Shown: in pieces, positions 931 to 27,142 of the stretch
Numbering within the stretch: the stretch's first letter is position 1
Layout of the letters: each line of letters starts with the position of its first letter
Sequence record: PX880101.1
Origin: a phage
Length of the DNA stretch: 64,000 nt
Reading direction: 5' to 3' (one strand)
Notes under the pieces: model-generated
What the model was told of the DNA's origin: nothing
The model's input: the letters and a program-made list of their open reading frames with translations, nothing else
The model's database searches: none
Position numbers and translations under genes: made by a program

Positions 931-3354
931 ATGAGCATGTGGTCGTTCGATTTTGAGTCATCCGGTTTGCTGGAAGACCCAGATCTTTATTATCACTGCG
1001 GTCTGTTTAAAGAGCTGAATAAGAACCGTTTTATGCTGTTCCTTCCTCTAAATGACCGCACACACTACTCCGAGGAGGATATAGAAAAGGCTAAGAACTT
1101 CATTCTGGCAAAGAAAACTCTTTATAAAGATTTTGAAGTTCGCATAGCAGATTTTTCGGAGTTGGAAGGTTGGCTTACAGGCAATTCCGACTGGTCACCA
1201 ACAGCTTTGAACTGCCATAACTGCTACAGTTATGACTTTATGCTGATGGAGAGATTGTCCGGTATTCATTTTGATATGTTCCGTGATCCTAAATGCATGG
1301 GGACTATCAACGACCACCAGGTTAACCTGTTTGATACGTTGGCGATGAGCCGAATTTTGTGGCCTGATCGCCCTCTACCAAAAGGTTGTCCGGACGCTGT
1401 ATTCAACCCGGTTACTAAGAAAATGCAGCCTGTTGGTCCTCACGGCCTTATGGCATGGGGCTACGCCCTTGGTAACCAGAAAGTTCAAATTGATGACTGG
1501 CGCGATCTTCCGTTGTGGAAGTATGTGGATCGTGTATTCGAGGACGTTATCATCCAGGAGCTGCTCTGGAAAGAGCTGGTAGCGGAATCAAAAGGTGTAT
1601 TCTACGGCAAATCTGACATGCAGAACTTTATGTACGATCCTGCCAAAGAGAAGCCGAAAGGGTTCAAGAAGATCACCTGGAAGAACGCATTACGCCGGGG
1701 TATGCTGCAGCACTTCCTGATGGAGCTGCAGGCCCGTCAGGGTGTATATTTCGACATAGATGGAGCTATTGCTTTACGTGACCGTTGTGATGCGTGGATG
1801 AAAGAGATCGCTGATCGTGTTGAACCTCAACTTCCTTTAAAAGAGTTGTCAATGTCTCAGCGGCCCAAGTTCCCTGAAAAGCCGTTTAACCAAGATGGGA
1901 CAATCTCCAATAATGGTTGGAAATGGTTAAAAGATAAGCTTGGCTATCCTGTGGACATGAGCGCTTTAGAGTTCAAAGCCCCACCTAAGCGAGCATTTAC
2001 CTCCACAGGGGATGTCAGTAAGATGGGGATAAAATGGTGTGAAGAGATGGGCTGTAAAGACCCTGATAAGATGGCTGATTTCTTGAGGGGCTATATTAAG
2101 GGCACCTCCACACCACAACCTTTACCTAAAGAGCTAATGGATCAGGCAATAAGTGATCTACAGCAGAAGCGAATGCCTGACTGCAAGATACCTATGAAAA
2201 TCAGCAATCAGGACGACATTAAGCGATACCTGATCAGTGCTGGTTGGCTTCCGACAATGTGGAGAACTAAGGATGTAACTAAAGACAGCAAGAAGAAAGC
2301 TCTACCTGATGCAGATGTTGATGCACGAGTATATGCATATATGGACGAGCTTTTAGAGTCAGAGTATTGTGACCTGATTATCAACTTCTGGAACAAAACT
2401 GATGCTAAGTTCCAGACAACCGTGCACAAGTTCCGAAGCTTTCCTAACTCCGAAAGGATTAAAAAGGAAGTATTCGGGAAAATACGTAGAAAAGCCAGGG
2501 CACTTATTACTTCTCCGCAACTGAAAGATACGTTTGGACACCTATGTCCGAATCTTGAAAAATTGAACGGAGAGATGGCTAAAGATATCGTCTTGTGGTT
2601 ATCCTTGCGAAACCGCAGATCGGTCCTTGATCCAATCAAGGAGGATAAGGTTGATACTGGTCTTCTTAATCACCCACGTTTGAAGATTGACCATAAGCTT
2701 CCTGCTAAAAGTTCTGGATTAACAAACACTTCCCGACAGAAACACAGTATTTGTGCGAACATGCCTAAACCATCTCCTAAAGTGGTTATGGGTAAAGAGA
2801 TGCGTAGTCTGTGGGGTGTTCCTCCAGGATACTTTGAGATTGGTATTGACGGGTCCAACTTAGAGCAGCTTATCGGGGCTTGGGGTGCCTTTGAGTTCGA
2901 CAACGGCTTGTATTATGATGTTGTAAGTAACGGGGACGCACACCAAAACAATGCTGAGGCATATACAAAAGTAGCAGGTAGAGAGGTGTCTCGTAACGAC
3001 GGTAAACCTATCACGTATGGGGTTATGTATGGGGCACAAAAAGATAAAGTTGCAGATATGCTGGACATCTCTCCAGAGTTGGGACAAAGGGTAATCGATG
3101 CACTCTGGGATGCCAACCCAGGTCTTAAGGGGCGCAAAGAGGATCTGGAGAAATTCTGGGAAGCAACAGGTAAGAAGTTTATCTACTCTTTTGATGGTCA
3201 TGCTATCTGGACCCGATCTAAACACTCTTTACTTAATGCATACCAACAAAATGGCGGTGCATCGTTGTGTGACTTAGTTGGAATACTCATGCACCACCAG
3301 ATGGTGAAGCGTGGGTGGTACGATGAAGGTGTTCGTCGTATTATTTATTACCAT
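931..3354 (+). CDS. DNA polymerase family A, exon 1 (3'-5' exonuclease plus polymerase motifs A and B)
   Basis: FDFESSG (Exo I), IDGSNLEQL (motif A), KPITYGVMYGA (motif B), NAYQQNGGASLCDL (helix before motif C); the unspliced frame ends IIYYH-K-stop at 3355-3360, before motif C is complete. Confidence 0.85.
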
Positions 3355-3630
3355 AAATAACATTGTGGCTTCATAGAGTAATCTATGTCGAATAACCTCT
3401 TTAACTGCGGGAAGCCTAAACCTTATGGCAAGGTAATCCGCAACGAAGCGCTCAAAAGAGCGAACGCTCAGAGGCCATTCCGAAAGGAAGTAGACCAGCA
3501 AGTGCGGTCGAAATGGGAGGATTCCTGTGGTTGCTTATCATAGGAATATGAGATGGTCCGATCCTACGTGAAAACGTATGGCTATGCACGTAAAGGTGCG
3601 GGGTAGCTTAACGACCTACCTGAACTATTG
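3355..3630 (+). other. Candidate group I self-splicing intron without ORF, inside the DNA polymerase gene
   Basis: Follows exon base U (3354) and ends in G (3630); GTGG at 3365-3368 can pair with exon end CCAU; GNRA-capped hairpins at 3372-3387 and 3478-3489; R-like UCAGAGGCCAU (3468-3478) and S-like AGAUGGUCC (3551-3559). Confidence 0.55.
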
Positions 3631-23862: not shown

Positions 23863-24282
23863 ATGAACATTAAATCTAATAATCCGGCATATAGCTTTGA
23901 TAACGCTTTTTGTCACGGTCCGGCGGCGAAAGGATTCGAAATCGATGGTAAACTAATTATTGTCAATGTTGACGGGGAAGAGGTTGCAGTATATCCGGTG
24001 GCAGACGTAAAAAGCCGTTTACAATGCCGCATTGATGTTACCGCCTATCAGCTTGATCCGGTCCGCATAGTTGCCCTGGTCCTGGAAGAAGAAATTAAAG
24101 CCATGCACCATAGCAACAGATTTATTGGTGACGCGCAGGATAATATGAAAGTATGCCGCCATAAAGTTAATGAAGTGCTTAAAGAGTACGGCTATAAAGA
24201 TCTTATGATCAAACGTGAGGAAAAATTCCGCTACCGTAACGACCTGGCAAATCGAATCTATGAAATATACGAATCATTATAA
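23863..24282 (+). CDS. hypothetical protein
   Basis: TAAGAGGTAAAAACACC-ATG. Confidence 0.55.
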   Translation: MNIKSNNPAYSFDNAFCHGPAAKGFEIDGKLIIVNVDGEEVAVYPVADVKSRLQCRIDVTAYQLDPVRIVALVLEEEIKAMHHSNRFIGDAQDNMKVCRHKVNEVLKEYGYKDLMIKREEKFRYRNDLANRIYEIYESL

Positions 24283-24300
24283 TTTCTTAACTAAACTATC

Positions 24301-24328
24301 AGGGGCTTTAAAAGGCCCCTTTCTTTTT
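24301..24328 (+). terminator. Rho-independent terminator closing the plus-strand early block
   Basis: AGGGGCTTT-A-AAAGGCCCCT followed by TTCTTTTTGT. Confidence 0.6.
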
Positions 24329-24929
24329 GTCTGTATTTCTCCTACCACAAACGGCCCAGCCTGGCAAGTGGAATAATTGACTAGCCATCAATCCCACACA
24401 CTGTACAAATATACATGGAAAATAACTATTGCATAATTTTTCATTGTGTGGTAGCAAGTCCATTTTTACCCGTTTTCTCTCTCAAAATTGCACGTAATGC
24501 CGCTATTGCACAAATTTTAACCTGATGCACATCTCCAATATCTTGTCAACAACTAAAAATCTTTATAAGTCATACACTTACACAGCATCGAAAGCGTGTT
24601 CTACGCGAAAAATCGAGTATAACTATAGCCGCCAGATCTCAGAATTCACGTACGCACGCCATTCTATAGCCTGCAAAGTATTTATTCCAACCACAGAATA
24701 ACGGAATAGTCAATACCTGCATAAAATAATTATTCGTGTAAACTGCATAACATAAATCAGCTCAGGTGTCAACATTTTTCGTAAACAGTCCGAAATTATC
24801 ACGATGAGTTATCATAAACAGAGAAATCTTTAGTCGTCTAATGTTTACTGTACATTACTATACTGACTGGAATCATTAGATGACTAAGAGAAAGATAAGA
24901 AATAATTAATAATGTAATTATTTTACCTG

Positions 24930-25240
24930 TAACAATAAGGCAACTATGCAAACGAATGGCATGGCGCGACGGAGTCGCGACATAATATAAAAGCAGTAAC
25001 CATCACCCCCGTGATAGTTTGTCTGCAATCTATTAATCAGATCATAGTTGCCTTGTATTCAGTTAATCATGACATAATAAGCAAGGCAACTATAGATCTG
25101 CTAATAGTTGCCCTGCTTTTATATTATGTCATAGAAACACCCGAAGGGGTGACCAAAGGTCACCTGGCATGGCCAGTGAAAGATTATTAACTTGTTAATT
25201 GTTAACTTGCTAATTGTTTTCATGCAAACGAATGTCATGG
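24930..25240. repeat. Cluster of inverted and direct repeats (GGCAACTAT in both orientations; 18-bp inverted arms GACATAATATAAAAGCAG; CATGCAAACGAATGNCATGGC direct repeat; palindrome CGCGAC-GGA-GTCGCG)
   Basis: Read directly from the sequence. Confidence 0.6.
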
Positions 25241-25249
25241 CTTATCCTA

Positions 25250-25330
25250 TCTGTGTAAACAGTTAAGGTGTAAACTATCCAGGCGTAAACAGTCTATGCG
25301 GGAACAATCTATACGTGAACAGTGAAACAT
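25250..25330. repeat. Iteron-like array: five or six copies of GT(A/G)AAC(A) at about 15-bp spacing
   Basis: tgtgTAAACAg, gtGTAAACt, gcGTAAACAg, gGGAACAat, cGTGAACAg, GTGAAACat. Confidence 0.55.
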
Positions 25331-26805
25331 GAAATAATAACAATCGTTATTGTGTCGAAAGTGTATAAGGTGTCATAGTATGTCAGACAAGTTTTTCTCC
25401 TCTTTGTCAAGTGCTGCATGAAAATTTACAAACTGGTATGGTAGCATTTTTGCGGCCCTGTTTACATTCAGTTGTGTATGTATAACCCTTGTTGTGTGGG
25501 CGTTTAGACGTCTGGACGGTTGGAAGTCTACAGGTCAATATCTAATCTATTGGCTGCTAACTATATCCCACACAAATAGTAAGAAATACAATTGTTATGT
25601 GAGTAAACGGTAACTCATGTTATCAATCCCTGTATGGATCGCCAGTGGTGCGCATAATGGGTATTATGTTAAATTGCCCGTAATGATAACTATTCTCACA
25701 ATGATAGGTATTCTCATTCACTCCCACAAGATAGGTTGCAAATGTTGTGCCACTGTGTGAACGGCCTCACCTATTAATTTGCCTCACTGCCTCGATATTT
25801 GAGAATTGTTATAAGAATGAGAAGTATTCCCATTTCGTCCGCCTGGCAGCACTCCAGTCGCTACCGCTCATGACAGGGCAGAACTGGGTCCATTCAGATA
25901 TTTCTGGCTGACTCTTCAGGTCTGTGTGGGAAAAGCCAACCTCTCCGGCGGGGCAGGGGTAGGTCAATTAAAAAATTTACGTGGTGTATGAAGAGCCCTT
26001 CAGGTAAGGCATGTATTATGGGATGAAACACCCTTCAGGCAATGATATTTGTGGGTGGGATATTTGCTGGAAAGCCAGATATGACGGGACTCCTGGCGGG
26101 GCAGGGGTAGTACAGACAGGGGAAATATGGTGGATGTAGTTGGGTGGATTGATCAGGCAGGTAGAGTATGGAATATGTTACAAGTATGTTAAATATGGAG
26201 GATGAATATCTGTAGGATTTGTGTGTAAAATCAAAGACTTAAGTGGTGTTGTGGTATTTTCTATAAATAATTCAAGTTTAATAGGTAATATTTGTCTCTA
26301 TCCGCTTTGTGTGGTAAACAAATTCAGATGGTGTTGGTTTACAAGTGTATACATAATATACAAATTAAAGATACAAGAAACCCCCCTCCCCCTTCGGCTA
26401 CCATTCACCTTTTCCTCTGACTGGTACTTAAACACTTATTCAGACTCTTCAGGTTATCACCCATATATCATATGGCAGTGACTGGTGTCCTCCGGCCCCT
26501 CTTTCGTCACCCGTCCGCTTCGCCATGCTAATGCCATAGCCAACGGTTCGGTTGTTCACCCTGTTCACTCAGGTGTATCTCCATACCCCTTCAAACCGAA
26601 GAGAACAGAAAACCCGAATTACTCGGTAAAAGAAAAGAGAAGAACTTAATTTTATCAGGATAGGCAAGAATGTCAAGGCATGACTGCTCACTAAACAAGC
26701 AAACAGTCATGTGTGGAAGGTAAGTGATTGTGGTGGTAGGAAATTTAGTTGAAAGATGTGTTATAGGTGCGCTTCCAGCACTTTAGCCGGGCAGCTAATT
26801 GTGTG

Positions 26806-27021
26806 TCAGTCCAGCGGTTCATCCTCTACTTCACTGAAATCAATGTTCATGGTCTCTTCCCAACCATCGATCTCAGCACAAGAGTGGAGTTCTTTAGGGT
26901 TTACTCCCAAAGCCTCAGCAACAGAGTCTATATTTAACACCTCTGGCAGGTATGATTCATCGAATTCAAGGTAAATCAGGCCACGAGTGTTGTCAGCTCC
27001 ACCAAATATTTCTATCTTCAT
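26806..27021 (-). CDS. hypothetical small acidic protein (N-terminus MKIEIFGG)
   Basis: Own promoter with extended -10 (TGTATAAT) and CAGAGGAGA SD upstream on the minus strand. Confidence 0.5.
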   Translation of the reverse strand: MKIEIFGGADNTRGLIYLEFDESYLPEVLNIDSVAEALGVNPKELHSCAEIDGWEETMNIDFSEVEDEPLD

Positions 27022-27142
27022 AAAATCTCCTCTGGAAATGAGAGTGTGAACAGGGTTTTATACGTTCTAATGCACAGGAATTATACACGTTTTCCTCTTC
27101 AGGCCATGCTTTAGCATGAGGAACCTGTGTGGGCTCGGTGCT

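Follow-up and report, generated by a model that had tools for sequence, protein, structure and literature searches.

A near-invariant palindrome and variable tandem arrays adjoin the direct terminal repeat of a Vequintavirus genome: candidate cis elements for end formation and packaging

We analysed a 64,000-nucleotide (nt) stretch of phage DNA (sequence record PX880101.1; hereafter the window), which belongs to a Vequintavirus (rV5-like coliphage) genome, concentrating on a group of repeats and palindromes at 24930–25330 within a 2.5-kb region free of open reading frames (ORFs). Comparison with related phages located both the physical ends of the chromosome and a conserved core. The 458/459-bp direct terminal repeat (DTR) of the genus corresponds to window positions 25386–25843, and the flagged interval is therefore junction DNA located within 1–456 bp outside one DTR boundary, stopping 56 bp short of position 25386. 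The DTR and a non-coding box in rV5 are already known; the placement of the flagged DNA beside the DTR boundary is new. By analogy with T7, we propose that the repeats and palindromes are cis elements for end formation and packaging at the junction of a short-DTR (T7-type) myovirus, a reading to which we give a probability of roughly 0.55.

The ends of the chromosome were found by mapping the ends of GenBank records, many of which break less than 1 kb from the flagged region, and this gave the two positions 25386 and 25843. The first is the start of the Pr121LW and Aya records and the end of the ECP2309 record, and the second is the start, on the other strand, of the bov11CS3, ECP2309 and HdK5 records. 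ECP2309 carries 25386–25843 at both record ends, and HdK5 has an exact 459-bp direct repeat at both of its ends, which correspond to window positions 25843 and 25386 to the nucleotide. In YN3 the segment occupies the record's own positions 1–458 and has a second copy elsewhere, and in ECP2303 it forms the last 459 bases; a second match to the segment was present in eight records, with HdK5, ECP2309 and YN3 combining a copy at position 1 with another one. Altogether, seven independent records break at 25386 or 25843, indicating fixed, sequence-specific ends that are reproducible between isolates. The segment is 90–99% identical across 120 records, about half of them at ≥95%, and the window is a permuted representation of the chromosome in which the DTR is collapsed to one copy. 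These coordinates agree with published accounts: Korf et al. described "short terminal redundancies of 458 bp" in the vequintaviruses EdH4 and HdK5 (PMC6563267), and a second paper gives 459 bp for the terminal repeat (PMC7471380). Furthermore, Mydovirus KPP-1, of the same subfamily, has a 514-bp DTR, with T7-type packaging called by PhageTerm and two-fold coverage of the repeat (PMC9862379), and the more distant phi92-like phage BME3 has a 342-bp DTR. The terminal features of the window are as follows (a slash marks the boundary).

25386–25843, no strand assigned: DTR of the virion chromosome, present as a single copy, with boundaries ATGTCA/GACAAGTTTTT and TTTCGTCCGCC/TGGCAGC
25844–25900, no strand assigned: variable stretch just beyond the second DTR boundary, indels occurring between direct repeats of GCACTCCWGT (mean identity 0.78)

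The DTR and the flagged interval share an ORF-free gap at 24283–26805, which separates convergent gene sets: the last plus-strand gene stops at 24282 and the first minus-strand gene occupies 26806–27021, with all of the genes flanking the gap annotated as (small) hypothetical proteins. The 2.5-kb gap was matched by 122 phage records at 91–99% identity, nearly all of them Vequintavirus and the best being A6-1 and the BASEL phage AlexBoehm; genome-wide divergence among vequintaviruses is about 5–9%. The preliminary description had found no credible ORF here, and this was borne out, as the longest mechanical ORF has 86 aa, the ten longest gap ORFs gave no match to PHROG families, and no gene is entered here in the curated annotations of rV5 and BASEL. 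In the rV5 genome paper the interval separating the convergent genes 163 and 164 had already been drawn as a "non-coding" box.

Within this gap, the repeats and palindromes of the preliminary description were all present where it had placed them and were jointly above chance. Their comparative anatomy in 17 vequintaviruses revealed two parts that differ sharply in conservation, the first being a core module with the following elements.

24933–25133, no strand assigned: near-invariant core module, delimited by alignment conservation, comprising S1, box1, the CGCGAC hairpin and the long palindrome
24937–24948, plus strand: S1, the first AAGGCAACTATG site, retained by every one of the 17 phages, FV3 included
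24946–24965, plus strand: box1, the first copy of a 20-bp direct repeat, ATGCAAACGAATGGCATGGC, from the repeat-family search
24965–24979, no strand assigned: GC palindrome CGCGAC-GGA-GTCGCG, a hairpin in the single-stranded DNA (ssDNA) fold and invariant in the alignment
24979–25130, no strand assigned: imperfect palindrome of 152 bp, with an 18-bp perfect outer stem, a side hairpin at 24998–25019, inner arms and an apical loop at 25056–25081

The inverted repeats that had been listed separately are pieces of this one 152-bp palindrome. Its outer stem is formed by the 18-bp inverted repeat GACATAATATAAAAGCAG / CTGCTTTTATATTATGTC at 24979–24996 and 25113–25130, the arms being 100% complementary with 116 nt between them. 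The motif GGCAACTAT occurs four times in alternating orientation, at 24939 (plus), 25044 (minus), 25085 (plus) and 25104 (minus); three of the four sites lie within the palindrome, S2 (25043–25054, minus) and S3 (25082–25093, plus) in the inner arms and S4 (25104–25115, minus) in the right arm, with S1 just outside. Folding of 24930–25135 as ssDNA gave −47.6 kcal/mol, as compared with −18.0±3.2 kcal/mol for shuffled sequences (z=−9.3; 0 of 200 shuffles as good). The core includes 70 consecutive invariant columns in a 16-phage alignment, and its mean identity to the window in the vequintavirus comparison was 0.96–1.00 over 24950–25099 and 0.92 and 0.87 in the two edge bins. It was recovered from 118 of 120 records, 108 of them at 96–100% identity and 10 at 80–90%, the listed ones among the latter carrying a 33-bp insertion. 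This insertion, found in rV5, phita32, C7 and LL12, is the sole sizeable indel of the core and falls at 25074/25075, within the apical loop. Being invariant, the core offers no covariation within Vequintavirus.

The second part, the spacer at 25134–25385 between the core and the terminus, is the most variable DNA of the gap (identity 0.33–0.76), and is built from hairpins and short arrays.

25134–25181, no strand assigned: two GC-rich hairpins, CACCC-GAAG-GGGTG and GGTGACC-AAA-GGTCACC (the latter at 25148–25164), with a terminator-like score on the minus strand
25183–25218, no strand assigned: A/T-rich 15-bp tandem array, TTAACTTGYTAATTG (Tandem Repeats Finder (TRF) period 15, 2.4 copies, 90% matches)
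25222–25241, plus strand: box2, the second copy of the box1 repeat, ATGCAAACGAATGTCATGGC, present in 16 of the 17 phages and missing in V18
25253–25329, no strand assigned: 15-bp tandem array described as 'iteron-like', made of five strictly spaced units with the core G(T/G)RAAC and then GAAACA (TRF 25253–25323)
25336–25351, no strand assigned: small palindrome AATAAC-AATC-GTTATT, from sequence inspection and relatives
25352–25385, plus strand: (G/A)TGTC(A) array running up to the terminus with units about 10–18 bp apart, the last unit, ATGTCA, abutting the cut site

Box1 and box2 contain the direct repeat ATGCAAACGAATGNCATGGC, at 24946 and 25222, respectively. The units of the 'iteron-like' array start at 25255, 25270, 25285, 25300 (GGGAAC) and 25315, in a strict 15-bp period, and are followed by GAAACA at 25323. 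The strict form GTRAAC has four matches in 81 nt against 0.06 expected (P~5 × 10−4, corrected for all 81-nt windows), and the array is the sole location in the 64 kb with at least three such matches per 81 nt. Its copy number among viable relatives ranges from 0 (V18) through 1 (bov11CS3, EmilHeitz, C7 and RudolfGeigy) to about 8–9 (rV5 and I29), and the array is therefore dispensable. Similarly, the 15-bp unit TTAACTTG of the A/T-rich array varies from 0–1 up to about four copies; the GC-hairpin module is missing in ECP2309, FFH2, EmilHeitz, ECP26 and Pr121LW and altered in magaca; and the AATAAC palindrome is present in the window, AlexBoehm, ECP2309, phita32, FV3 and others and absent from rV5, FFH2, I29, magaca and V18. 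All TGTC units are on the plus strand, and in the window they stand at −33, −15 and −5 as counted from the DTR; relatives have one to seven of them, and the −5 copy alone is invariant, being found in all 17 phages. The array region showed no significant folded structure (z=−1.07). As a result of this variation, the distance from the palindrome to the DTR ranges from 115 to 325 bp among vequintaviruses.

A comparable arrangement was found in other genera of the subfamily. KPP-1 contains a 210-bp multi-branch palindrome (z=−13.0) that starts 309 bp from its DTR boundary, on the matching side of the DTR; besides an inner stem and a side hairpin, it has an outer stem that is perfect over 21 bp. 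The KPP-1 DTR is inverted relative to the window, with the colinear motifs TTCTCYCTYYTTGTCAAG and AAATTTACAAA common to both at the boundary; this orientation was taken from motifs internal to the DTR because tblastn of the ORFs flanking the gap in the window against the KPP-1 locus gave no matches. Across 59 Mydovirus and Seunavirus-like records from Klebsiella, Salmonella, Cronobacter, Escherichia and Proteus hosts, the KPP-1-type palindrome was full length in 55, and the adjoining spacer in only 14 of 51. Scanning IMG/VR with GCCACGATAACGCGAAC yielded 18 loci. Eleven could be aligned to the palindrome of KPP-1, six of them over its full length and five only in part or truncated; the remaining seven were dropped, having no similarity to it. 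We then aligned ten examples of the palindrome, including IMG/VR loci, to measure covariation. Sixteen of the 58 pairs of the consensus structure were changed on both sides with pairing kept, whereas shuffled alignments gave 6.0±1.6 (0 of 500 as high), and 96.7% of the alignment cells were paired compared with 22–51% when partners were slid. At one locus (L036), the outer stem differs in sequence, yet its arms still match perfectly as an inverted repeat over more than 20 bp. Since the compensatory changes keep the dyad symmetry, these alignments argue that self-complementarity is under selection in the Mydovirus and Seunavirus-like relatives.

The direct observations (where the termini lie, how conservation is distributed, the core's self-complementarity and the varying copy numbers of the arrays) together fit a model in which genomes would be joined head to tail through the DTR during infection. 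The terminase would then cut at ATGTCA/GACAAG (between 25385 and 25386) and at CGTCCGCC/TGGCAG (between 25843 and 25844), and duplication of the DTR would leave a copy at each end of every virion genome. The core at 24933–25133 is the best candidate for a specific cis-acting element in this process. It may be what the small terminase subunit, or some other protein of end processing, recognizes; it may supply a hairpin or cruciform intermediate such as has been proposed for duplication of the T7 terminal repeat; or it may do both. The region at 25134–25385 would serve as a length-tolerant spacer whose three arrays grow and shrink by slippage, each being dispensable, in the manner of the CCTAAAG arrays on either side of the T7 terminal repeat. 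Counted in favour of this packaging reading were the mapping of the termini to this place; the bipartite conservation, with a near-invariant core and the most variable DNA of the gap side by side; the strong fold of the core, with its only large indel confined to the apical loop; the comparable arrangement beside the DTR boundary of KPP-1; the compensatory changes that maintain the dyad symmetry of the KPP-1-type palindrome; and the matching layout of T7. Of the functions named in the preliminary description, a packaging or terminase site is the candidate best supported by position and by the T7 analogy.

Several points weigh against this reading. The role in packaging and end formation is drawn from position and from T7, and the link to the terminase is a predicted one. 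No convincing motif is shared by the two cut sites. The variable distance of the palindrome from the DTR disfavours a rigid geometry of the lambda cosB–cosN type. In FV3 (L021, JQ031132), the only vequintavirus found without the core, the palindrome is gone by a clean deletion between box1 and box2, and the homologue of the gene at window 23863–24282 is absent as well; this loss could be real, or the palindrome could have been dropped during early cloning or sequencing, and if the deletion is real the core is not essential. The Vequintavirus core has no significant homology to the palindromes of the other genera (local score 27 against a shuffled maximum of 29), and the link across genera is therefore one of position and architecture. 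The compensatory changes themselves could reflect hairpin or cruciform formation, symmetric half-sites co-evolving with a dimeric protein, or gene conversion between the arms. Finally, two papers with default PhageTerm runs describe vequintaviruses as circularly permuted headful packagers. Such published statements are inconsistent, because bov11CS3 (MT884009.2) is 'circular permutated' by PhageTerm in its own paper, yet version 2 of its record starts exactly at 25843. We considered a headful pac site separately and rejected it, given ends that are identical to the nucleotide between independent isolates and a repeat that is exact at 458–459 bp.

A more specific proposal, which we advance tentatively and regard as possible rather than probable, is that the palindrome and its Mydovirus and Seunavirus-like counterparts constitute an undescribed cis element of the Vequintavirinae, one that would extrude as a hairpin or cruciform, or fold in single-stranded form, to duplicate the DTR or to start replication beside the end. 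GTGTC is one of the recognition pentamers of T7 primase, and one possibility suggested by that analogy is that the plus-strand GTGTC units beside the cut site might be priming sites for a gp4-like primase. The rV5 paper describes a T7-like replisome comprising a family A polymerase and a gp4-like primase–helicase; if true, the proposal would provide a defined end-replication mechanism for a myovirus with such a replisome.

Among the alternatives to the packaging reading, a replication origin in the flagged DNA appears unlikely, though it was retained as a rival. On this view an initiator would bind, or the T7-like primase–helicase would be loaded, at either the palindrome or the GGCAACTAT sites, TTAACTTG would be the unwinding element and the GTRAAC units would be iterons. 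Repeats, palindromes and an A/T-rich doublet do occur together in the flagged DNA, the core is extremely conserved and universal, and covariation of the structure in related genera is expected of a single-strand initiation signal; furthermore, phiOL and phiOR of T7 also adjoin the terminal repeat, inverted repeats close to the N4 DTR are reported to initiate synthesis at its ends (PMC3896407), and the rV5 authors had been unable to place an origin. The iteron interpretation offered in the preliminary description was nevertheless weakened on several counts. The array has a period of exactly 15 bp, whereas iterons are sets of three or more direct repeats of about 17–22 bp spaced in phase with the helix (about 11 or 22 bp), only a 6–8-bp core of each unit is conserved, and the array is not kept in all relatives (none in V18). 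The A/T-rich 15-bp doublet is present but ranges from 0–1 to four copies, 24900–25400 contains no DnaA box or integration host factor (IHF) consensus, and no initiator-like gene was identified nearby, the flanking ORFs being annotated as small hypothetical proteins. FV3 moreover lacks the core. The GC-skew plot that had been suggested as a check was uninformative: the cumulative maximum lies at about 27–28 kb in the window and tracks the gene-orientation switch, coinciding with convergent transcription. The authors of rV5 likewise found no origin location by skew analysis, each skew change matching a change in transcription direction, and GC (and AT) skew is unusable for origin finding because it follows transcription direction.

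A different segment of the gap, 26220–26680, looks more like a transcription-primed origin than the flagged DNA does. The block at 26370–26720 is 97.7–99.7% identical in 119 records, a level above that of the flanking genes. Within it lies the region's strongest sigma-70-like promoter, a near-consensus one of the extended −10 type (26676–26649, minus strand; TTGACA-16-TAAAAT with a TG extension), and about 250 nt downstream the transcript would contain G5AG6 (26394–26383), followed by 83% A+T DNA (26340–26369). The only DnaA-box-like match of the gap (TTTTACACA, minus strand) and its only IHF-consensus match (AATCAAAGACTTA) stand side by side at 26222–26241, adjoining A/T-rich DNA. Transcription-primed origins such as those of ColE1, T7 and mitochondrial CSBII are built in this way, with a G-run and A/T-rich DNA behind a promoter, and the layout of 26370–26720 is reminiscent of such an R-loop origin, or else of a non-coding RNA not yet described; folding the 26370–26645 minus-strand transcript as RNA gave no significant structure (z=−1.5). 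On this likeness, if the gap contains an origin at all, the 26370–26720 segment equals or surpasses the flagged one as a candidate.

It is likewise doubtful that the arrays are functionless minisatellites accumulating in recombination-prone DNA near the termini and that the palindrome has an unrelated role, whether as a cluster of operators for a phage regulator, as an element that blocks or terminates convergent transcription, or within a non-coding RNA. As to the arrays, close relatives differ freely in how many copies there are, which arrays occur and in what order, the array region lacks significant structure, and both DTR flanks are indel-rich with deletions between short direct repeats; on the other hand, the TGTC unit that adjoins the cut site does not vary. 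For the palindrome, the four 12-bp sites in inverted pairs are operator-like, and two terminator-like hairpins lie on the minus strand at 25019–24998 and 25151–25138. Against this, the palindrome stays beside the matching DTR boundary in KPP-1, which belongs to the one other genus with a mapped DTR, and GGCAACTAT has just three more copies elsewhere in the 64 kb with no enrichment at promoters. A promoter and terminator scan found no convincing promoter or intrinsic terminator bracketing the core, and the Rfam scans gave no match in the gap: at gathering thresholds the whole window returned a group I intron alone, and an E-value scan of the gap returned sub-threshold, hairpin-shaped chance matches only (E 0.1–5).

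An assembly artefact of mis-joined contig ends is scarcely credible: several GenBank records break within the gap and I29 and OR062943 contain duplicated or overlapping sequence, but 99 of the 122 records cover ≥80% of the gap in one continuous stretch at 91–99% identity, the record breaks coincide with the published DTR to the nucleotide, and the window contains neither a second DTR copy nor a chimeric junction. Of the suggested contig join at the genome ends, the genome ends proved essentially right, the physical ends being at 25386–25843 and thus to the right of the flagged interval, and the artefactual join did not.

Further features of the gap and its surroundings were recorded. Arrays occur on one side of the DTR only; the right flank carries just a pair of direct repeats over about 50 bp of indel-rich DNA. 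Farther outside the right boundary, a 16-bp exact direct repeat, GGCGGGGCAGGGGTAG, occurs at 25947–25962 and 26095–26110, 148 bp apart; KPP-1 has a similar G-run motif (C6TTC5 on the plus strand) about 130 bp from its own DTR. The interior of the DTR contains an 18-bp tandem repeat, AATGATAACTATTCTCAC (1.9 copies, 25682–25716), with a third degenerate copy at 25816–25832 near the DTR end, and the KPP-1 DTR has an interior motif, AATGAGAAT...ATTCTCATT, resembling it. In I29 (ON286975), positions 2159–2752 repeat the equivalent of 25627–26170, a segment that crosses the DTR boundary on the right, and 60 nt in inverted orientation separate the two copies; this duplication is probably an assembly problem at the terminal repeat. 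The heptamer TGTGTGG/CCACACA occurs seven times in the gap (24394–26710) against about one expected and 26 times in all 64 kb, with two further copies beyond the gap at 27126 and 27467. The group I intron lies at 3345–3580 (Rfam RF00028, 64.7 bits) and probably corresponds to the element that, according to the rV5 paper, interrupts the gene for the large terminase subunit. Eighteen MG0656xx records, designated UNVERIFIED 'Campylobacter phage' (host C. jejuni), are 95–99% identical to E. coli vequintaviruses here and are likely to be mislabelled or contaminated. The left edge of the gap is marked by the following feature.

24301–24330, plus strand: intrinsic terminator closing the rightward transcription unit, with the stem-loop AGGGGCTTTAAAAGGCCCCT followed by a T-run

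These results bear on a group of phages that are commonly used in therapy and biocontrol, and for which more than 120 genomes are available with arbitrary start points and conflicting packaging statements. The termini ATGTCA/GACAAG and CGTCCGCC/TGGCAG offer a rational genome start and account for the 2.5-kb non-coding box of rV5. Our literature search found no Vequintavirus transcriptome, mapped origin or description of these repeats. The gap now provides testable candidate cis elements of packaging or replication, namely the invariant palindrome, the dispensable arrays and a second, 100%-conserved promoter block, with uses in phage engineering, rebooting and transduction vectors. How DTR phages duplicate their terminal repeat is unsettled even for T7, and a conserved, covarying palindrome beside the repeat would give this question a second experimental system.

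Among known systems, lambda cos (cosQ–cosN–cosB, R1–R3) resembles the region in having several 12–16-bp sites in both orientations on one side of a terminase cut. It differs in that lambda has 12-nt cohesive ends and the phage studied here a 458-bp direct repeat; moreover, the sites here lie 270–450 bp from the cut, the palindrome is at 115–325 bp in relatives, and no IHF site was found. Iteron origins (lambda ori, P1 oriR, P4 ori/crr and plasmid Rep–iteron systems) likewise have direct repeats beside an A/T-rich stretch, and the GTGAACA core is superficially like the reverse complement of what we take to be the P4 octamer, TGTTCACC, which we treat as a lead only; the 15-bp period here is, however, out of step with the helical repeat, and the copy number runs from 0 to about 9. 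For N4, inverted repeats near a DTR of about 500 bp are reported to initiate synthesis at the ends (PMC3896407), and the likeness lies in a DTR of about 400–500 bp with inverted repeats near the end, which in N4 have been proposed to act in hairpin priming. The palindrome here lies about 250–400 bp inside unique DNA rather than at the extreme 3′ end, and simple fold-back priming at the terminus is therefore impossible.

The closest comparison is with T7, whose sequence we read directly: its terminal repeat (1–160) is followed by twelve CCTAAAG copies with a 12–13-bp period, a similar array precedes the right-hand repeat, and not more than a few hundred bp from the terminal repeat there are phiOL, phiOR and A0, an E. 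coli promoter directed leftward. The phage studied here differs in being a myovirus of about 137 kb without a phage RNA polymerase and in having a DTR of 458 rather than 160 bp. Its arrays are prominent on one side only and are of three unit types, its palindrome is far larger (about 150 bp) and nearly invariant, and the genes on both sides are transcribed towards the ends. The two systems nevertheless share short, exact DTRs with fixed ends, and both have arrays of 6–7-bp cores at a 12–15-bp period immediately outside the repeat (SRL/SRR in T7; 25183–25218, 25253–25329 and 25352–25385 in the window). Host or phage promoters and candidate secondary-origin functions fall within the same few hundred bp in both, phiOL and phiOR being secondary origins of T7. 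A T7-like replisome is common to both as well, as described for rV5. Finally, each has a self-complementary element on one side of the repeat that is a possible hairpin intermediate; for T7, Chung, Nardone and Hinkle (1990) reportedly proposed that concatemers are processed via a hairpin end beside the repeat.

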